Assembly: GCA_045105515.1 (NCBI GenBank)
Contig: JBGCDR010000196.1
Span: 1 to 19,700 of the forward strand
Length of the DNA stretch: 19,700 nucleotides
DNA from: Oligoflexales bacterium
GTDB taxonomy: Bacteria > Bdellovibrionota_B > Oligoflexia > Oligoflexales > Bog-1112
Direction of reading: 5' to 3'
Position 1 is the stretch's first letter. Every line of letters begins with the position of its first letter. The notes under the pieces were generated by a model. The model saw nothing but the letters and a program-made list of their open reading frames with translations, searched no databases and was not told where the DNA came from. A program made the translations under genes and the position numbers. Below, piece after piece: positions 9,568-19,700 of this stretch.

Positions 9568-10464
9568 TTAAACTTTCCAACGATCTAGCCATGGCCCACT
9601 AATGGTAGTATTATAAGTATCTAGATTTTGCCCTGCTCGCTTTTGCTTTCCCCACTTATCCCATTGTTCCATGGAGCTTTTTATAGGTAAACACTCTTTG
9701 CCTGCACCCATTCCATTGGAAAGACTAGGATCCTGCCATCTTAAGTCAATGGTCCAACGTATTAGCTTTGAGAAATTTTCTAAACAACAGTGAGGAATAA
9801 GCTGATTAAAAAGAACTAAGCTTCCAGCGGGAACCGGACAGAAAATATGTTCGCCTTTTGGTAAATTATCCTCTGCAATTTTTAAGTACCAGGAATCAGG
9901 ATGACCTGAACCACTTTCAAGTTGATGCGGATAAACCTTTGCTTGGGAATGCCCACCTTTTATGAAGACCAAAGGTCCCTGTTCTAAAGTTACATCAAAT
10001 AGGGGAACCCAAGTTGTGATTTGAGAAATACTTTCGCTTCCAGTCTGTAGATATGCTGTATCTTGATGCCATGGAACCGTAGCAAGTGGGTTTTGTGGTG
10101 TCTTTGCTCTGAGATTCCAGACTGGATGCAAGCCAGGAGACTTACCCAGCAATGTTTCAATGAGAGAGATCATGGGTTTTTGAAGACTAAACTCGTGAAG
10201 TTCATGGCTAAATTCTCCTAAACTATGAATGCATACGGATGCCAATGGGTACTCTTTTTCAATCCATATTAGTCTAGTCGATAAGGGCTTATCCGCATAG
10301 GTACTTTTGATTTTCCCTTCCGCAAGTAGGTATGTGGCAAGTTCATTTACTAAACGAGATATCCATGCTTTTAGTGGAACAAGTTCTTGCTCAGTAAAAA
10401 ACTTAGGTAAAATCAGAAACCCGTTCTGTGTATAGTTTCGATGTTGTTGGCTGCTGAGTTCCAT
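9568..10464 (-). CDS. PhyH-family Fe(II)/2-oxoglutarate dioxygenase
   Basis: Motifs Y.QNGFL, VPWHQD (HxD), TTWVPL.DVT.E.G.L.FI.GGH, G..VLF....PH and RWTIDLR. GGGAG RBS. Confidence 0.93.
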   Translation of the reverse strand: MELSSQQHRNYTQNGFLILPKFFTEQELVPLKAWISRLVNELATYLLAEGKIKSTYADKPLSTRLIWIEKEYPLASVCIHSLGEFSHELHEFSLQKPMISLIETLLGKSPGLHPVWNLRAKTPQNPLATVPWHQDTAYLQTGSESISQITTWVPLFDVTLEQGPLVFIKGGHSQAKVYPHQLESGSGHPDSWYLKIAEDNLPKGEHIFCPVPAGSLVLFNQLIPHCCLENFSKLIRWTIDLRWQDPSLSNGMGAGKECLPIKSSMEQWDKWGKQKRAGQNLDTYNTTISGPWLDRWKV

Positions 10465-12203
10465 CTAAATAAAGCTCCCATCTTTGAACAATTTTGCGGT
10501 ACCAGGTGAAGTAGAGTCCGATAGCAGCACATCCTGAAAAACAAACAAATATGATGGCTGCTTGATACCATTGGGCTACAAAATACATCGGTCCCAAATA
10601 CAAACCTGCAATGACAACTATAGCTAAACAAACATTGATTGCGCTTAAAGCTAAGGTTTCACTGGGCTGAGTTGTTTGTTGTGAAACCTTTAACCGAACT
10701 TCCTTCCAAAATCCAAAAGGACGTACTGATTGATAGAACTTGATCAAGATTTCCTTGGGTACGGGGGGAGATAAATAACTCACAAACACAGAAGCTAAAC
10801 TTGAGCTAATAGTGCAAATAAGGAATGAATCAATTGCTTGTAGTTGGGGTACATATAGACTGAAAAAAGCAGTTAGCATTCCGACTACAAGGCCAGCACT
10901 ATATCCCCAACCATTCATTCGCCACCAATACCAACGTAATACATTTGGAACGATCACTCCTGATCCTAATGCCATCATTATCCAGCTCCAGATTTGAGTG
11001 ATAGATTGCTGTAGATCCGCAAAAAATACCGACTAAAACTAGAAGTATATTCGCAAAATAGCTTGCTCTGATCAGTTCTTGATTTGATGCATTGGGAGCA
11101 AAATGCTCGTGCCAAATATCTTTTACTAGGAAAGATGCGCTACTATTTAAAACTGAGCTAAATGTTGACATGAAAGCAGCAAAAAATCCTGTTAGGACAA
11201 AACCTCTTATTCCAGAAGGAAGATACTCACGAAAAACAAGGGGCATGACTTTTTCCGGGTCTTGAACTCCATTTTCTAAGCCTTGTAGGGCTAATAAAGT
11301 AATACCCATACACATAGGCCAGCGTACAACTAAAAACAAACTCCAAGCTGCACCTGTTTTAGCAGCGTCAGCAGGGTTTTTTGCTGCTAAAAATCTTTGG
11401 AAGTCATACATTTGCCCCGGTCCACCTAAGTTTAATAAGAATCCTTTAATACACCAAGCCACTGTCAGGAGTCCAAACGTTTCATAGCCTGGAATGGTAG
11501 TGGTAGATGGAGGTATCAATGAAGCCCAGGAATCATCGAGGTATGTATGTGCAGGTTCTAGAGAATACCATGCTATCCCTGCAATAATAAGAGATGAAAT
11601 ACTTAGGATAATTGTTTGGATGACATCGCTACAGACAACTGCCTTAAGCCCCCCTAATAATGCATAAATAGTAGTAAATCCCATAATGGTAAAGGCACAT
11701 GTTGTTGGAGAAAAAGGTAAATAGACACTAGCAAATTTTCCTATGCCTTGAAAAGCGTAGCCAATGCTTGCTGTTAGTGTAATTACAGCCATGATAGCAT
11801 AGGTGAGTTGAGCAAGCTTTCCTCCTTTACCATTTCCAAAGCGAATACGCATCCATTCAGCAGGGGTTAGCACCTCTGAAGATCTTACCCAACGACCCAT
11901 AAATGCCATAAATGCCATAAATGCCATAAATGCCATAAAAAAAGCGCCCATAAATACACCCCACATCATATGGACCCACATGGATTTCATGCCCATTAGA
12001 AACAAGAGGGAAGTTATAAACATGGTGCCAGCAATGTCAAAGTTGGAAACAGAACCAGACATAGCTAAATAGAGCCAACTAAGTTTATGATCAGCTAGAA
12101 AATAAGACTTTAAATCAACACTAGCGCTTTTTCTCGATAAAATACCAAGCAGCATCAACAGACTAAGATAGGTCCCAAAAATTAAATAATCAAGAAGGTC
12201 CAC
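10403..12203 (-). pseudogene. Sodium:solute symporter (SSS family), split by a frameshift near 11000-11026
   Basis: Motifs SYFLA..LSW, Y..LGGL.AV..SD.IQ, QRFLAAK, LP.G.RG....G..AAFMSTFSS.LN and LRWYWWR.NGW. The second frame continues as QSITQIWSWIMMALG. Confidence 0.9.
11897..11939. repeat. Perfect 9-bp tandem repeat (CCATAAATG)x4 plus a partial copy, in frame within the SSS gene
   Basis: Encodes FMAFMAFMAFMAFM on the minus strand. Confidence 0.97.
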
Positions 12204-12595
12204 TAAGATCTCCCTAAGGCTTCGATTGGTGATATCATCATCAGCGTACTTAATAAGCTTGCTTACTTTATTTATACTAATCTTTTTTAAATTGAACCAT
12301 ACATGCTTTTTAGTTTCCGGTGCAGTTTTGTTATAATTAACTTCATCCTACTTACAAATGTTTCAGAAACGCTCAGAATTTAGAACCCAAATCACAGATT
12401 TTATATTTCCTGTGATTCCCAGAGAAAAATGCTGGAGTTTAGGAGATGGTCTAGCACCCTTTCAGAGCTGGTATGATATCCCTATTGTTGACTGTTATAA
12501 ATACGTATGCTAAACGATTTTAGCTATGTTCTGGTTTTTTCCACCATTAGACCAATTAATCAGAAGCGGGACTATAAATTAGGCATTATAAGCTA

Positions 12596-14158
12596 ATGAT
12601 TCAACAAAAACAGCTTAAAAAATATGCTCATGAAGTTAGCCAAAAACTTATTCATCGTACTAGTCATTTCAGTAAGATCCCTAAACTCAACAAGTTAGTA
12701 GGAACTAAGCATCTGGAAAAGGTTCAGACTTGGATCTTAAATAGACAACTGAAGCAATTTAAACAAACACCTTGGGGTAAAAGACATCTTTCCCAATGCT
12801 ATAGTTATGAGACTTTTAAAAACACTTGCCCTGAAACAAGCTATTCTGATTGGAAGGAGCTTATTGAAAAGCAAAGAAATTTAAGACAAGAAGTTTTCAG
12901 TCCTAAAGTACAAAGATATGTGCCAACGAGTGGATCTAGTGATCTAATCAAATGGATTCCCTACACTAAATTATTCAACCAAGAATTGCAGAGTGCCTTA
13001 TCTAGTTGGTTAGCTAATATTGCAATTTTGTATCCAAAAACTTGTCAAGGCAGCCATTATTGGTCCTTATCTTGGCTACCAGATTCGCTACGAATAAATG
13101 GTGAAACCACTGACGATTCCCAAGTGTTATCGAAACTATCGCGTTTTCTTTATAAACAAATCATGGCAGTGCCTTCTGAAGTTGGTCAGCTTCCAAGCTG
13201 CAGAGATACCCGTTTTGCAAGCGCAATCTATCTTTGTGCTTGTCAGAGTTTATCAGTAGTCTCCTTTTGGAGCCCAACCCTTGGCTTAGAGCTTCTTCAA
13301 GACATCATTGCCCATAAAGAAACCATAGCAGATATTCTAGGAGGGGGTTCTTGGAATTATCCTGTACCTGCACCTCGGTCTCCTCGAAACGCTTCCATTT
13401 TGAGAACTTGGAATAGTGGTGAAGCTCCTCAGGAATTATTTCGCGCATTGTGGCCGAAGTTATCCCTTGTAAGTGCATGGGACACAGGAAGTTCTCGTAT
13501 ATGGGCAGAAAAGTTAAAAAGGCTTCTTGCACCTGCAAACTTTCAGGGCAAGGGTCTTTGGGCTACAGAAGGTGTGGTTTCAATTCCAATCAATGGGTGC
13601 AATGTTCTTGCTGCTACAAGTCATTTCTATGAATTTAAGCTTATCAGTACCGGTGAAATAATTCCTTCTTGGCAACTAGAAACTGGTGTAGAAGTTCAGC
13701 CTATCCTTACTACAGGTAGTGGGCTCTTACGTTACCAACTATTTGACAAAATGGTCTGCCGGGGCTTTTTAGGAGCTCTTCCAAAGTTAGAGTTTATGGG
13801 GCGACTAGGGGGAATTGATATGGTGGGGGAAAAACTCGATTATTCCCACGTTGGGAAATATCTGAATATACTTCGAGGGAATGGGATTCCTGCCTTATCC
13901 CTTATTGGTGTTAATCGCAAGAACCCTCATTACATTTTGCTTATAAAAAGAGAGATTGATCTAGCTACCAATAATAGTATTCGCAGTGAGACAGAAAATT
14001 TTCTCAGGCAGAGTCATCATTATGCTTTGGCTCAAGATATGGGGCAGCTAGGATCCCTTGAAGTTATAGGCAGCCAAGATGCTCTAGGCTATTACCACGG
14101 ATTATTCACCAAACCTCGGGGACAGATCAAGATAGAAGATCTTGCTCTTGCTCAGTAA
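12596..14158 (+). CDS. GH3-family acyl-adenylate-forming amido synthetase (GH3 auxin-responsive promoter family)
   Basis: P-loop TSGSS...KWIPYT, GLWATEG, SHFYEF, TT.SGLLRY.L.D and F.GR...D.VGEKL. Confidence 0.9.
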   Translation: MIQQKQLKKYAHEVSQKLIHRTSHFSKIPKLNKLVGTKHLEKVQTWILNRQLKQFKQTPWGKRHLSQCYSYETFKNTCPETSYSDWKELIEKQRNLRQEVFSPKVQRYVPTSGSSDLIKWIPYTKLFNQELQSALSSWLANIAILYPKTCQGSHYWSLSWLPDSLRINGETTDDSQVLSKLSRFLYKQIMAVPSEVGQLPSCRDTRFASAIYLCACQSLSVVSFWSPTLGLELLQDIIAHKETIADILGGGSWNYPVPAPRSPRNASILRTWNSGEAPQELFRALWPKLSLVSAWDTGSSRIWAEKLKRLLAPANFQGKGLWATEGVVSIPINGCNVLAATSHFYEFKLISTGEIIPSWQLETGVEVQPILTTGSGLLRYQLFDKMVCRGFLGALPKLEFMGRLGGIDMVGEKLDYSHVGKYLNILRGNGIPALSLIGVNRKNPHYILLIKREIDLATNNSIRSETENFLRQSHHYALAQDMGQLGSLEVIGSQDALGYYHGLFTKPRGQIKIEDLALAQ

Positions 14159-14172
14159 GTTTAGGAGTTAAT

Positions 14173-15210
14173 GTGAACCTAAGGGAGCGTGATCAGCGGC
14201 TGCAAGAGAACTGGTATATTGCTTGTCAGTCCTTTCGTCTTAAAAAAAACAAACCGCTTAAGAGTAAGATATACGATCAAAATCTAGTGATTTTTCGCAA
14301 CCAAAATAATGTAGCTTCTTGTTTGCTGGATCGTTGTTTGCATAGACATTCCCCTCTTTCTGCCGGAAGAATAAGTTCTGGGCAAATCGAGTGCCCTTAT
14401 CATGGGTGGTGCTTTAATGACCGGGGTGAATTAACTAAAATTCCTTCAGAGAAGAATTCTTGCACACGCTTCCGTAAGAAAATAAAGCACTTTCCTGTTA
14501 TCGAGCAGGATGGATTAATCTGGATATGGATGGGTGATGATGAAAAACCCTATAAGAAGCCCTGGAAATTCCCAGAAAAAAAAGGATGGCATTCATATAT
14601 TATGGAAACCAATTTTGAAAATGAAGTAACTCATTTAGCAGAAAACTTCATGGATGTTCCTCACACTGGTTTTGTGCATAAAGGTTGGTTTAGAAATGTC
14701 AGTAATCAAAAATGCGATATGACTGTTCGTGCTACGAATGGTGAAGTGTGGGTAGACTATAAGCAAGACAAGGATAAAATTGGTTTCATCGATAAGTTAC
14801 TGAATCCTACGGGAGCTGATTCAGTTCACACTGACCATTTTTTTATGCCAAATATTACAAAAGTTGACTATCTTTTTGGGGCTCATAGAGGTTTTTCTAT
14901 CATTAGTCAATGTACCCCAGAGTCAACATTGCAAAGTAAGGTATTCACGCAAATATCTTATCGATTATTTCCAGGGATCGATGCAGTTTTTAAACCTTTT
15001 CTAAATTGGTATACCAGACAGGTTATTAATCAAGATGTTGAAATTATGAAGCTGCAGGGAAAAAATATTGATGATTTAAGTAGACCTAAATTTACAGGTG
15101 GTCAGGCTGATCAGATTCACCGAGAAATTGAAAAACTGAGGATTCAAGGAATTAATGATCCTGACACTGTCCCCACTTCCTCCGAAAATATAGTGTCAAT
15201 ATGGATCTAG
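14173..15210 (+). CDS. Rieske non-heme iron oxygenase (VanA/KshA-type monooxygenase alpha subunit)
   Basis: Rieske ligands DRCLHR...CPYHGW and mononuclear Fe motif ENFMDVPHTGFVH, with C-terminal QD. RBS AGGAG at 14163-14167. Confidence 0.95.
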   Translation: MNLRERDQRLQENWYIACQSFRLKKNKPLKSKIYDQNLVIFRNQNNVASCLLDRCLHRHSPLSAGRISSGQIECPYHGWCFNDRGELTKIPSEKNSCTRFRKKIKHFPVIEQDGLIWIWMGDDEKPYKKPWKFPEKKGWHSYIMETNFENEVTHLAENFMDVPHTGFVHKGWFRNVSNQKCDMTVRATNGEVWVDYKQDKDKIGFIDKLLNPTGADSVHTDHFFMPNITKVDYLFGAHRGFSIISQCTPESTLQSKVFTQISYRLFPGIDAVFKPFLNWYTRQVINQDVEIMKLQGKNIDDLSRPKFTGGQADQIHREIEKLRIQGINDPDTVPTSSENIVSIWI

Positions 15211-16337
15211 AAGCATTCCTTAAGAAATGGCCTCAGTATAGCCTTGCTGAAGAACAAGATAACTCAGAGATTTTAGAATTTTGTCGTCCTTTGAGTATAG
15301 CTGGAGAAGGATTATCTTTCCAATATTTGCGTGATCCTTGCTTTTTCACCTTCAGTCGTTTTCAAGGAAAAGTTTTTACCTTTGTTGCGCGCATTGAAGG
15401 CAAAATTCGAGGTATTTTTAGTCTTTTAGTTCGTTCTGCTTATATGGATCAAAAAAAGGTAAAGCTTGGCTCATTTAGCGATCTTTTAGTTGAACCTGGA
15501 TATTCAAAATCTGTTGATTGGTATCGATTGGCTGCGGCATTGATGGAGCAAAAAGACAAGATAAATGAACTCATTGGCATTGCAAGCTTCCAAAGTGTTT
15601 TTGTAGATGCCAATAAGCGCGCAAAAAGAGCCATTTATGGAAAGAAAAATCCGGGGAAAGTTTGCTTTTTCAATACAGACCCATATCACATGGTTAATAT
15701 TGTTTCACCGCTAAAACGAGTTAAATACAAGTCTGGGTATAAAGTAGAGTTTGGGTCCATAAAGACAGGAGAAGAAATACTTGACTTTATGGACCGTTGT
15801 CAAAGTCAGCAGCAATTTGGTTTTTCGGCAAGAGATGAGTGGAAGCATCGTCAAATTCATTGGCCATCATGTACTATTGATCGCTTCATTGTTTTAAGGT
15901 ATCTAGACAAAATTGTTGGGGTAACACTTCCTTGGAGCCCTTATCCGGCTAAGAGTATATTGGTGAAGAAAATTCCAAAATCTTTAGGAATACTAAGAAA
16001 GATTCAAAAGATTTTTCCGAGTATGAATATCCCAAAAGAAGGTGATTTCTTTAAGTCAATTTATCTAACACACCTTAATATCTGTAATAGTCTTAAGGAA
16101 AATCAATCTCGCTATATTATGACTCTTCTCATAGATCATGTTTGGAAAAACAGCCTATATGAAGGGATTCACACAGTATCTTTTGCAGATTTTACTAAAC
16201 GCTCTCTAGCACCTTCAAGTTTGTATTTTATTCAAAACAAAATACCAATGCGGCTTTGTTATATGGGCTTTCACAGTCATAAGTCACCGGTATTTAATGT
16301 AGGAAGGGTTTCTGCTCTTGAAATTGCAATGGTCTAA
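15201..16337 (+). CDS. Hypothetical protein, probable tandem GNAT-fold acyltransferase
   Basis: A..EDN.EILEF, Y.RDP.FF, G.FSDL.V.P.Y and DANKRA follow the GNAT motif order; a second similar half follows. Confidence 0.6.
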   Translation: MDLEAFLKKWPQYSLAEEQDNSEILEFCRPLSIAGEGLSFQYLRDPCFFTFSRFQGKVFTFVARIEGKIRGIFSLLVRSAYMDQKKVKLGSFSDLLVEPGYSKSVDWYRLAAALMEQKDKINELIGIASFQSVFVDANKRAKRAIYGKKNPGKVCFFNTDPYHMVNIVSPLKRVKYKSGYKVEFGSIKTGEEILDFMDRCQSQQQFGFSARDEWKHRQIHWPSCTIDRFIVLRYLDKIVGVTLPWSPYPAKSILVKKIPKSLGILRKIQKIFPSMNIPKEGDFFKSIYLTHLNICNSLKENQSRYIMTLLIDHVWKNSLYEGIHTVSFADFTKRSLAPSSLYFIQNKIPMRLCYMGFHSHKSPVFNVGRVSALEIAMV

Positions 16338-17796
16338 ATCTTTACCCACCACCGAGAGGTGGATCAGCGAAAATCCATGGCAAGCTTTTTTAGTTTATTT
16401 TTGTAGTAGTTCAATCCTCTACTATTGGGCCAGCCATCATCCGTGGACCAGTAAATTTAGAATTTTTTCTAACACTCTTGACGCAATGATACCATATATG
16501 CCGGCATTTGTGACTCCATATCTTAGCTATTTTGCTATCGTGCCTACCTTTATTTTTCTGAGTCACAAGGAAAAATACTTTTCGAAAGTTTTCTTAAATA
16601 CCTGTGGGTTTGTGTGGATTCATCTTTTTATCTGCATTGTAGTACCCTCACATTTTAGTTTTGAGCTTCCTAAAACCTCATCTTATCTAGGGAATCTTTT
16701 GGCACAAATAGATACTCCTTTTGCTGCTTTTCCCAGTGGGCATGTTGGCCTACCAATCTGTTTAAGCTTGCTATTGTTTAAAAATGCACCTAAGCAATCT
16801 TTCTTGTTTGGTGCGTGGACAATACTGATGTGTATTTGTACCCTTGCTACCAAACAATACAGTATAGTTGATGTAATTGGAGGGCTAATTTTAGGTAGTT
16901 TGGTTGGTTTAACAGCAATTTCACTAGACGATGATAAAAAACAACATTTTAGGAAAAAATTAGCAACTAAAACGCTTTTAGCAGCCGGGTGCGAATGGAT
17001 GCTTATTATTCTCTCACTTGTATTGTCTCTACAATTTCCTTCATGGCCTTCATATGTGATCTCCTTTTGTATCATTGCTAGCAGACAGCATGCCTTGTTT
17101 ATTCTCTATCATGATGGAGTTCATGGCCTTTGGGTGAAGGATTTGCGAACCAACGATTTTCTAGTCAATCTGAGTGTAGGAATACCCTTTCTTGCCCCTA
17201 TACAAGTTTATAGACCTTTACATCTTTCCCATCATCAGCAATTGGGTAAAGCAGATGATCCAGAGTTGCGGTTCCTATATGCTGGACAACCTTGGAAATA
17301 TAAACCCCTATCAGCCGTCAGATTTTTCCAGCAAGTATTTTATGATTTGTTTGGAATTAGTTTTGTAATGTCGCTGTTTGCCCTTATTAGAAATCCACCC
17401 ACCTTAAAGAGATTCAAGGGCTTTGATCTTTGGTTTTTACTTGCATGTTTTATTTGGTTTCTTATATTACTAGGTATTACTTGTGTTGAACAGGCAAAAA
17501 CCATATTCGTTTTACTATACCTACCCTTATATACTCTTACGCAATGTTTGCAAAAAATCAGGAGTTTTCTAGAACATGGCATCAAGGATGAGCAAAACCA
17601 CACAACATATTCTTGGTTTCCTGGGTTTTTAGGGCGTCTGACTATTTGGCCTTATCACATAAACTTCCATCGTGAGCATCATAAATTCCCCTCTATTTCA
17701 TGGAATCAATTACCCAGTTTACCCTCTCACACAAATTTAAAAAACACTAATCTAGCCTTAGGCCACTTACTCAACCTATCAAGGAAAAAGCCATGA
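16318..17796 (+). CDS. Fusion of a PAP2-superfamily (IPC-synthase/Aur1-like) membrane domain and a membrane fatty acid desaturase
   Basis: N-half: LDAMIPY.P.F..PYLSY, D.PFAAFPSGHV and TLATKQYSIVDVIGG. C-half: His boxes HDGVH, HLSHH, EH and HREHH. The start codon is uncertain (TTG). Confidence 0.88.
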   Translation: MKLQWSKSLPTTERWISENPWQAFLVYFCSSSILYYWASHHPWTSKFRIFSNTLDAMIPYMPAFVTPYLSYFAIVPTFIFLSHKEKYFSKVFLNTCGFVWIHLFICIVVPSHFSFELPKTSSYLGNLLAQIDTPFAAFPSGHVGLPICLSLLLFKNAPKQSFLFGAWTILMCICTLATKQYSIVDVIGGLILGSLVGLTAISLDDDKKQHFRKKLATKTLLAAGCEWMLIILSLVLSLQFPSWPSYVISFCIIASRQHALFILYHDGVHGLWVKDLRTNDFLVNLSVGIPFLAPIQVYRPLHLSHHQQLGKADDPELRFLYAGQPWKYKPLSAVRFFQQVFYDLFGISFVMSLFALIRNPPTLKRFKGFDLWFLLACFIWFLILLGITCVEQAKTIFVLLYLPLYTLTQCLQKIRSFLEHGIKDEQNHTTYSWFPGFLGRLTIWPYHINFHREHHKFPSISWNQLPSLPSHTNLKNTNLALGHLLNLSRKKP

Positions 17797-18563
17797 GTTT
17801 GCGTACAAAAATTAAAAAAAAACAGGACGTGTCTCAAAAAGATCACAAGGATATGTTTTATATATTTCAGAAATATTATGATTGTATTAGCTTTGATAAG
17901 TTTGTCAGAGACTTACAAAATAAAACCCATGTCATTTTTCTTTTCGACCATTTGAAGCTGATTGGTTTTAGTACAGCTCATTTAGGCCAGAGTCCTAAAT
18001 ATAAAGGAACTGTGATTTTTTCTGGAGATACTGTAGTAGAGCGAAAATACTGGGGACAGAAAATTCTGCAAAAAGCATTTTATCAACTGCTCTTTAAGGC
18101 AATCATAAAATCACCTTTTAGACCGGTTTATTGGATGCTAATGAGTAAAGGATACAAAACATATTTGCTGATGCGTAAAAATTTTCCAAGATCATATCCT
18201 AATTTTTACGAATCGACCCCTTATCAATTAGAAGAGATAAAAAATTGTTTTTATAAAGATCACTATGGAATATTTTTTCAAAAAAATCAGTCGATCATAG
18301 CATTTGACTCGTCCAAAGGGCAGCTCAAGCAAGGCATAGCTCAGGCAAGTGAAGCTGATTGCCTCAACCCCGAAATTAATTTTTTTACAGCAAAAAATCC
18401 TAAAGCTAGTTTAGGTGAAGAGCTGGCATGCATAGCGCATATTCGTTGGTATGACTTATTTTATACTGGCATTAAACATTGTAGGCATTGGTTTAAATTG
18501 AATAACCCAGGAAAACAAACAAATGCAAGCATATCAAGATTTCCTACACGTGGACGGGCCTAG
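17793..18563 (+). CDS. Hypothetical protein, probable GNAT-like acyltransferase of the type found beside bacterial GH3 genes
   Basis: Motifs F..DL..K..VI, LIGFST, IFSGDTVVE..YWG, YW.L.SKGYKTY and FF...NP....GEELAC. ATGA overlap with the upstream stop. Confidence 0.65.
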   Translation: MSLRTKIKKKQDVSQKDHKDMFYIFQKYYDCISFDKFVRDLQNKTHVIFLFDHLKLIGFSTAHLGQSPKYKGTVIFSGDTVVERKYWGQKILQKAFYQLLFKAIIKSPFRPVYWMLMSKGYKTYLLMRKNFPRSYPNFYESTPYQLEEIKNCFYKDHYGIFFQKNQSIIAFDSSKGQLKQGIAQASEADCLNPEINFFTAKNPKASLGEELACIAHIRWYDLFYTGIKHCRHWFKLNNPGKQTNASISRFPTRGRA

Positions 18564-19476
18564 CCTGGACAAAGCTTTAGAACAAGCAGGCCGCAAATTA
18601 AAATGTCCTCCCAAAGAGCTTATGCAAGCCGCTTCTTGGTCGACACTATGCAGGCATTGCTTAGAAGAGTGGCTCATGATAGGTGTTTGCTGGTTTGGAA
18701 TTAAATACAGCCCAAATTATTTATATCCTATACTTGCTCTTGTCATCAGTGGAAGGTTTCATGCTCTTGGAGTGATCCTTCATGAAGCATGTCATTTGCG
18801 CCGCAGTCGCAAGTTTCAATCCTGTATTGTTGAATTTTTAGCAGGTTATCCCATTGCGAGCACTATTGAGGCTATGCGGTATCATCATCTGCGCCACCAT
18901 CTAGATACGAGTCAAAAAACCGACCCTTATTTTAAAGAGGGAATTGAAAAAAAAATTTATCTTCGGGTATTAATGTATCTAAGGTCTTTCCTTTTGGTTC
19001 CTTTTTGGATGATTCGACCTATTTTTGGGGTATTGTCTTTCTATCATCATGGTTTACGTAATTTCTATGGTCATGTCTTCTTGCAGGATAAAAGTAAGAA
19101 TGATTTGAGAAAAAGTATAAATATCACTCATTGTATAAATCGTGAATTTGGCCAGCTTGCATTTCAGATGCTGCTTGGCATTGTGGCTTTCATTTTCCCG
19201 ATCGAGATTTTTTACGGATATATAATTCCCGTTCTTATTACTGCATTTACAAATGGGCACCGGGTTATTGTAGAACATTATCACGAGGCAATACCTAATA
19301 GGAGTCCACAGATACTGATGAAAAATACCCGTGATCATGGAAGCAAGTTTATTTATCGATTCCTATTTTTTCCTCGTAATATTGGATATCATCGCATGCA
19401 TCATCTTTTCCCAGCAGTCAGACAAGAGCTGCTCCCAGAGCTTACAAGATGGTACCAGCTTAATGAGGGGGCTTAA
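18523..19476 (+). CDS. Membrane di-iron fatty acid desaturase-family protein
   Basis: His boxes HEACH, HHLRHH, EH and YHRMHH, with hydrophobic segments. Confidence 0.92.
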   Translation: MQAYQDFLHVDGPSLDKALEQAGRKLKCPPKELMQAASWSTLCRHCLEEWLMIGVCWFGIKYSPNYLYPILALVISGRFHALGVILHEACHLRRSRKFQSCIVEFLAGYPIASTIEAMRYHHLRHHLDTSQKTDPYFKEGIEKKIYLRVLMYLRSFLLVPFWMIRPIFGVLSFYHHGLRNFYGHVFLQDKSKNDLRKSINITHCINREFGQLAFQMLLGIVAFIFPIEIFYGYIIPVLITAFTNGHRVIVEHYHEAIPNRSPQILMKNTRDHGSKFIYRFLFFPRNIGYHRMHHLFPAVRQELLPELTRWYQLNEGA

Positions 19477-19583
19477 TGAAGGCTTGGCAACCCGACGACT
19501 ATAATTCTTGGTATCCGTACTATCCTAAACCTAAATTAAGTAAGAATGCTCAAGTAATTAAAGAGGGCGGATTGCTAGATTAA
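19476..19583 (+). CDS. 35-aa ORF translationally coupled to the desaturase (not in the ORF track)
   Basis: TAATG stop/start overlap and GAGGGGG RBS. Reads MKAWQPDDYNSWYPYYPKPKLSKNAQVIKEGGLLD*. Confidence 0.4.
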   Translation: MKAWQPDDYNSWYPYYPKPKLSKNAQVIKEGGLLD

Positions 19584-19700
19584 GTGCAGAAGAAAAAATT
19601 CCATCGCTTCGGAAGGCGGATTTAGTTTAGTCTATGAGGCTAATCTGCTTGCAAGAAAGGGGTATTTATGTCTGCCAATCTCACTTATGAGCAAAGGTAT

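Follow-up and report, generated by a model that had tools for sequence, protein, structure and literature searches.

A cluster of biosynthetic genes, apparently undescribed, occupies the right-hand end of a 19,700-nucleotide stretch of DNA (the window) from an Oligoflexales bacterium (GenBank assembly GCA_045105515.1, contig JBGCDR010000196.1, here C196, of which it is the full length). Six complete genes, designated A to F, follow one another on the forward strand. Gene A (12596-14158, 520 amino acids) encodes a GH3-family acyl-adenylate/amide ligase, assigned from Pfam, motifs and a tree, and B (14173-15210, 345 amino acids) a Rieske non-haem iron oxygenase, assigned from Pfam and conserved ligands. 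C (15201-16337, 378 amino acids) has the predicted fold of a tandem-GNAT acyltransferase resembling N-myristoyltransferase (NMT), whilst the product of E (17793-18563, 256 amino acids), of an unnamed family, has a predicted single GNAT fold. D (16318-17796, 492 amino acids) encodes a PAP2-type domain fused to a His-box membrane di-iron desaturase/hydroxylase and F (18523-19476, 317 amino acids) a second such desaturase/hydroxylase, both recognised by Pfam. Matches above the Pfam cut-offs were obtained to GH3 (95.5 bits, cut-off 23.6), GH3_M (43.4), Rieske (79), VanA_C (43.1) and FA_desaturase (88.9 and 85.5); PAP2_3 on D is sub-threshold (23.6 bits against a cut-off of 27), and both Pfam and NCBIfam scans of C (ORF3) and E (ORF5) were empty, single members of the C family being scanned rather than the whole alignment.

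The initial annotation of this DNA described six same-strand genes with tight junctions, and the open reading frame (ORF) coordinates bear this out: A and B are separated by a 14-bp gap, and the junctions that follow are overlaps of 10, 20, 4 (ATGA) and 41 bp. Our case for co-transcription is drawn from these overlaps, as scans for promoters (21 against 22.6 expected) and terminators (5 against 5.7 expected) both performed at chance; a hairpin at 19604 sits within an insertion element. Among the sequencing runs listed for this DNA there was no RNA run. The G+C content of the operon (37.9%) is close to that of the source genome (38.3%).

The same annotation closed the operon at 19583 and treated it as a six-gene unit, and in this it fell short. 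Position 19583 is the stop of a 35-amino acid ORF (19476-19583) that starts at the last base of the F stop codon, a one-base overlap, and represents the 5′ portion of a truncated seventh gene, G. The first 30 codons of G (19476-19565, forward strand) fit positions 2-23 of a profile built from 26 sequences of a hydrolase family whose genes neighbour D in relatives; the match is weak, at 9 bits, but the fragment is the only one to score on this profile among 83 frames flanking this element end. From 19566 to 19700, on the forward strand, the sequence is that of a multicopy insertion element, inside which the contig breaks; it recurs at 78 contig ends of the source genome and is present at more than 200 times the depth of the operon in the same bin. 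Another contig of the source genome, C136, opens with a different multicopy end (71 contig ends), directly followed in frame by what appears to be the rest of the hydrolase (5418 down to 4633, profile positions 31-288, 259 bits) and then by a fatty-acid hydroxylase gene (4621-3908), giving a unit of at least eight genes of which the seventh is cut by the insertion element and the eighth lies on C136. The same three bases flank both sides of the C196/C136 break; this short target repeat and the first codons of the element recall what we take to be the IS30 family. A related locus, L016, carries F, hydrolase and hydroxylase genes in that order, the latter two being 48% and 50% identical to their C136 counterparts, and is the closest of the compared loci for A, B and E, with a close F (43, 54, 52 and 44% identity). 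The hydrolase-like G product carries an HSKGG motif, on which its presumed alpha/beta-hydrolase fold label is based.

Insertion elements abound in the source genome: its contigs terminate in multicopy sequences of at least 17 classes, each found at 15-112 ends, and both ends of C196 and of C136 are multicopy ends. On C136, an ORF at 2088-2900 of locus L153 (plus strand) that we presume from a motif to be methyltransferase-like, with no Pfam match, faces the hydroxylase on the opposite strand, and a thioredoxin-like gene likewise faces the hydroxylase.

The profile score of A and its similarity to solved structures both place it in the GH3 family, the A family profile matching the plant enzyme AtGH3.15 with an E value of 2.9e-39. 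The conserved motifs span T111-K119, G320-E325 and G376-D384, with K512. With reference to the passages of PMC12493201 that set out three nucleotide-binding motifs, motifs I (111-119) and III (376-384) are present in A, and motif II is a variant without tyrosine that ends in the invariant E325.

E belongs to a family with 439 matches. A model built on 120 aligned relatives (predicted local distance difference test score, pLDDT, 91.2) has a single GNAT fold by structure comparison (Z 13.1, root-mean-square deviation 2.5, 148 aligned), and a sequence search of the PDB with E found nothing significant. Residues S77-T80, K119, G120, E210 and C213 are invariant in 120 of 120 relatives (in these family alignments the window protein is the query, which inflates counts of conservation and of deviation alike). 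In 30 proteins of other loci (L096-L152), position 213 is cysteine in 26, serine in three and a gap in one; this pattern fits a nucleophile, and fits a small packing residue too.

The second GNAT-type protein, C, was modelled on 144 aligned relatives with a pLDDT of 94.5, and the predicted folds of C and E thus agree with the two GNAT-like proteins of the initial annotation. The top Foldseek matches of C are NMTs, the best being that of Candida (E value 7.6e-12), and in VIA-align the mycobacterial tandem GNAT MAB_4324 and yeast NMT are tied (Z 18.6 and 18.3). The alignment with yeast NMT takes in model residues 1-378 and extends as far as residue 455 of NMT. This residue is the catalytic C-terminus, whose carboxylate serves as catalytic base in NMT according to parts of PMC4964394 and PMC7048800. 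The C-terminus of C is fixed in length: 130 of the 144 aligned members stop exactly four residues past the conserved E374. The likeness to eukaryotic NMT, then, lies in the tandem-GNAT fold and in this aligned, length-fixed terminus; C differs from it in that identity is about 9-13% and the mycobacterial protein scores equally. A full HMMER search gave 372 relatives of C, whereas a word-indexed search returned C itself only and a sequence search of the PDB nothing significant. The acceptor of C is probably not a protein.

All four oxygenases have intact metal ligands where these were checked, and alignment columns uphold the intact GH3, Rieske and desaturase motifs first reported from the window. 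B has the CxH...CxxH ligands of a Rieske centre and a 2-His-1-Asp site (H164, H169, D288), each residue of C55/H57/C74/H77 and N158/D161/H164/H169/D288 being shared by 66-67 of the 67 relatives; the solved proteins closest to it in sequence are DdmC and SxtT. Rieske oxygenases need a reductase, and the operon has none for B; two ferredoxin-like genes lie elsewhere in the source genome. The 92 aligned relatives of D, among them sequences from Burkholderia, Pseudomonas and Robbsia, share its fusion of PAP2 domain and desaturase, and the His boxes of D (H265-H269, H302-H306, H451-H455) are invariant in 93 sequences; those of F (87-91, 121-126, 290-294) are conserved in 16 of 16 relatives. Both proteins have membrane segments predicted by hydropathy. 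Thus the PAP2::desaturase of the initial annotation stands as regards fusion and His boxes, and D also has the PAP2 PSGH motif (P139-H142), but the histidine of the third PAP2 motif is replaced by Tyr181. Named NCBIfam models match far below threshold: GntB at 63 and 67 bits (67 being F) against 380, and SdmA at 76 against 600, scores that fall short of the curated cut-offs for GntB or SdmA equivalogs. When metagenomes were scanned with F alone, 75 candidate stretches came up and none was confirmed.

How widespread is the cluster? Relatives of E occur in at least 550 species genomes scanned with the E alignment, the carriers including Bdellovibrio, Pleionea, myxobacterial and acidobacterial genomes. 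Eighty E loci were kept, and 39 with at least 7.5 kb on both sides of E form the E-anchored set; counted with score thresholds of our own setting and with several profiles built from the same loci, 32 of these 39 have GH3, 27 a B-type Rieske gene, 18 C, four F, five a separate PAP2 gene and none the D fusion. A metagenome scan with D gave 48 loci, 39 of them scoring as D-type, and amongst the 22 of these that are 9 kb or longer, 19 have the hydrolase, 18 have GH3, 18 have E, 16 have B, 16 have C and seven have F. That the genes co-occur elsewhere, as the synteny check proposed in the initial annotation asked, is borne out by seven loci in which all six are found together: L101 (Burkholderia arboris), L106, L107, L112, L116, L117 and L121. 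They fall by GH3 identity into three groups, each at 28-32% from the window GH3, and none shares the window's gene order.

Genome sets chosen by neither E nor GH3 served as controls. E is present in 27 of 401 Planctomycetota genomes, and GH3 (E value at most 1e-20) in 25 of these 27 as against 118 of the 401; the two genes adjoin in 18 of the carriers. In the window's own class, 14 of 16 genomes with E have GH3 (E value at most 1e-8) against a background of 39 in 131. None of 15 genomes of the same family as the source has E or GH3, which points to horizontal gain.

The association extends to the phylogeny of the ligase. In a tree of 124 GH3 sequences, all 80 E-linked proteins fall in a single 88-tip clade (support 0.94), and a 36-tip clade (support 1.0) has no E-linked member; most of the E-linked tips were obtained by way of E or D, and kin among the tips are not independent. 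The planctomycete GH3s in the tree number 30, of which 29, as read from the tip list, lie in the E-free clade, and their genomes have no E match. E is almost always found as companion to one GH3 subfamily, which these comparisons set apart as one tied to two unnamed acyltransferase families.

Around the constant pair of E and GH3, the accompanying gene sets vary. A Rieske-rich set is present in 18 of the 39 E-anchored loci and a radical S-adenosylmethionine (SAM) set in four, as well as on a Citrobacter plasmid; other sets come with MMPL transporters, MMPL/HpnN-like proteins being encoded in nine of the 39, or with an RnfD-like/FG-GAP protein. The fatty-acid hydroxylase of the Rieske-rich subtype matches OlsE weakly (69 bits against a cut-off of 475). 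In Acinetobacter baumannii (NZ_CP064203.1, L102 9138-16817), HlyD, major facilitator superfamily (MFS), E, GH3, outer-membrane efflux protein and C genes form one run. E was found in two A. baumannii records of the plasmid collection, and the GH3 of this species is among the closest to A (42%).

Some further loci can be noted here. On a mobilisable plasmid of Citrobacter portucalensis (L103 11974-24069), E and GH3 are found with five radical SAM genes and genes for an N-acetyltransferase, a PAP2 protein and a desaturase. L019 (7074-9887) and nine others of the 39 E-anchored loci encode a 930-amino acid protein with an RnfD-like membrane domain, FG-GAP and ASPIC/UnbV, which we take to recall the UnbU/UnbV genes of enediyne clusters. 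In Pleionea sediminis, a second E-GH3-C locus (L161) exists beside the Rieske-type cluster L041 in the same genome.

The closest characterised precedent is bacterial. The initial annotation was correct in the family assignment, but looked to plant JAR1 where the sections of PMC12493201 on OlsH and OlsI offer a nearer parallel. As described there and in part of a review (PMC12971839), the Singulisphaera acidiphila GH3 protein OlsH uses ATP and a free fatty acid to produce N-acyl ornithine, which the alpha/beta-hydrolase OlsI then O-acylates. Like the OlsH/OlsI(/OlsG) system in that account, the window cluster has GH3 and a putative alpha/beta-hydrolase in one operon (G being split, and joined by inference), has no carrier protein and, in the order proposed here, would form the amide first and the ester second. 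It differs in having two extra GNATs, four oxygenases and a PAP2 domain. The layout olsH-olsG-olsI is not found either, there being no methyltransferase among the eight genes of the operon. The GH3 motifs also differ: the window protein has SGSS and G-L-W-A-T-E where the motifs printed for OlsH (PMC12493201, in part) are SGTT and YPCSE. SGTT is the majority form in the E-free clade, so the printed motif I of OlsH fits that clade and not the window's. OlsH itself was not among the planctomycete GH3s from 39 loci fetched out of about 400 Planctomycetota genomes, and the window GH3 appears to lie in another clade than OlsH. The cluster, then, would work like OlsH/OlsI but is not a member of that system, since its layout differs and its GH3 clade is apparently different.

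A second point of comparison is provided by the cyanobacterial 'Rieske-containing' clusters with CylC homologues, which the relevant passages of PMC8406957 present as carrier-free and propose to act on fatty-acid intermediates. Those passages, which make no mention of GH3, describe orphan sets comparable to ours in having a Rieske protein, a sterol-desaturase-family protein and acyltransferases without a carrier, and 18 of the 39 E-anchored loci resemble this layout (it is layout that was compared, not likeness to CylC itself). The cluster studied here differs in having one Rieske gene and no further di-iron gene among its eight, whereas the CylC type as described combines one CylC homologue with between two and four Rieske genes; no match was found in the source genome to a pair of unnamed families that characterise the Rieske-rich subtype. 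No description of the gene set was found in the open-access literature, in line with the earlier statement that no product had been assigned to it. The cluster is a real and widespread orphan pathway and, on the reading proposed below, a new form of GH3-dependent amino-lipid synthesis.

What might the pathway make? We consider it probable, with moderate confidence, that the cluster specifies a carrier-free route, similar in its logic to that of OlsH/OlsI, and that this leads to an amide lipid that is multiply acylated and either hydroxylated or unsaturated. In the scheme that we propose from folds, motifs and co-occurrence, a three-enzyme core of C, A and E would build the amide backbone. C would transfer a long-chain acyl group from acyl-CoA or acyl-acyl carrier protein to a primary amine; A would adenylate a free carboxylate (a fatty acid or N-acyl amino acid) and join it to an amino group, giving a second amide; and E would act in the step next to GH3, either making the GH3 substrate or taking over the acyl group. 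Like OlsI, G might then attach another acyl chain to a hydroxyl through an ester bond. The Rieske protein, the two His-box di-iron enzymes and the fatty-acid hydroxylase would hydroxylate or desaturate either the chain or the head group, and a phosphate-linked group would be removed or transferred by the PAP2 domain. In keeping with the PKS/NRPS-free pathway first suggested, the gene families that recur beside the cluster include no polyketide synthase (PKS), non-ribosomal peptide synthetase (NRPS) or carrier gene.

The amide-lipid reading has the following in its favour: E and GH3 co-occur in unselected genomes and share one GH3 clade; the six genes recur in seven loci and the hydrolase in 19 of the 22 long D-anchored loci; a bacterial GH3 and alpha/beta-hydrolase are reported to make N-acyl and then O-acyl ornithine (PMC12493201, in part); and there are the weak OlsE match, the MMPL/HpnN-like transporters and the membrane segments predicted for D and F. 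Several observations weigh against it. C is absent from 21 and F from 35 of the 39 E-anchored loci, and the gene set is therefore modular and not fixed. The link between C196 and C136 is one that we infer, the assembly not joining them, and the three-base repeat is not statistically significant (52 shared against 47.9 shuffled, with 73 of 500 shuffles reaching the observed value). Nothing in Pfam, NCBIfam or the PDB matched the hydrolase, so that O-acyl transfer by G is proposed by analogy. For D, F and B, the named proteins that fit best (GntB, SdmA, DdmC, SxtT) act on small molecules or sterols, and the A. baumannii locus, a minimal exported version of the cluster, looks like one for small-molecule export.

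These last points lead to the best-placed alternative, which we nevertheless think rather unlikely: that the same chemistry yields not a membrane lipid but a small molecule for secretion, be it a signal, a surfactant or an antimicrobial amide. Besides the HlyD, MFS and outer-membrane efflux genes around the A. baumannii core, the patchy distribution (none of 15 same-family genomes with E or GH3) would suit such a product, as would the fact that D and F are nearest, among named NCBIfam models, to GntB-type amino-acid hydroxylases. However, the window operon has no transporter, MMPL is present in none of the 22 long D-anchored loci, no efflux family recurs among their unassigned neighbours, and PAP2, fatty-acid hydroxylase and desaturases are membrane enzymes. 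The two readings overlap, moreover, as a lipid-like amide could also be exported.

It is less probable still that the enzymes modify an outside or pre-existing substrate, by conjugating and oxidising a host acid or, in the case of C, by acylating a peptide or protein. Precedents exist in hormone conjugation by plant GH3s and in protein acylation by NMT (PMC4964394, in part), B is nearest to demethylases and hydroxylases of small substrates, and three sequencing runs that contain this DNA, all from one study, are labelled plant metagenome. The cluster is found, however, in Bdellovibrio, Pleionea, myxobacterial and acidobacterial genomes too, no uptake or catabolic family recurs beside it, and its varied tailoring sets (radical SAM, di-iron, Rieske) fit biosynthesis.

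A locus for tailoring ceramides or sphingolipids (GNAT ceramide synthase, desaturase, hydroxylase and PAP2 head-group transferase) is highly improbable, for although the tailoring families match those of sphingolipid pathways and D has its weak PAP2_3 match, no serine palmitoyltransferase (SPT) was found in the source genome or other carriers checked (the sole BioF/SPT-family match in the source genome, which is 90.9% complete, is glycine C-acetyltransferase at 630 bits, the best SPT model scoring 338; none was found in the complete Bdellovibrio HCB-110 genome, and for the single matches in A. baumannii and Aquabacterium BioF is the top-scoring model), and we know of no role for GH3 in known ceramide synthesis.

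Within the amide-lipid reading, a bolder proposal, which we advance as doubtful, is that E, GH3 and C form the core of a large, unrecognised bacterial class of amide-lipid pathways, in which GH3 would hand the acyl group to Cys/Ser 213 of E in a carrier-free relay and C would be an NMT-type enzyme using its own C-terminus as base. Such a class would extend to the at least 550 species genomes with E, Bdellovibrio, Pleionea and myxobacteria among them, with further copies in Burkholderia and Acinetobacter. OlsH is the only bacterial GH3 with a shown function that we found in the open-access literature, and its authors, in the part of PMC12493201 concerned, count over 7500 homologues and anticipate further products. 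Pleionea sediminis, Bdellovibrio sp. HCB-110 and Burkholderia arboris are carriers available in culture, and could reveal a new class of lipid or amide.

The copy in the window is itself probably partly decayed. The third-motif histidine is catalytic in PAP2 proteins; at this position of D (residue 181, in HxxxD) the window has tyrosine and 92 of 92 relatives have histidine. Base 16858, in the Tyr181 codon, is unchanged in the main contigs of three sequencing runs from one study, possibly the source, whilst one run also contains, at a depth of 3.6, a minor relative that differs at 39 of 338 bases and keeps the histidine codon. C has serine at a position where 135 of 143 relatives have tyrosine and none of those listed has serine; its Leu96 is shared with a close relative and hence is a lineage-specific change. 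A, B and E show no deviation at conserved columns. With G split, the hydroxylase cut off by the insertion element and the PAP2 histidine lost, this strain probably makes a truncated product or none, and with gene 7 split and that histidine gone the window copy is a poor choice for expression.

Some minor features of the surrounding DNA were also recorded. Two of the sequencing runs (X2 and X3) have, over window positions 11500-19700, low-depth contigs about 10% divergent from the window, representing a co-occurring relative with at least parts of the operon. Upstream of A, on the minus strand, a sodium:solute symporter is represented by two overlapping ORFs (10899-12203 and 10403-10978) and may be frameshifted; a 9-bp unit is present in four tandem copies near 11898-11933 in this region. 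A PhyH-type dioxygenase gene (9568-10464) comes after the symporter ORFs, and an IS66 orf2 is located at 1899-2228.

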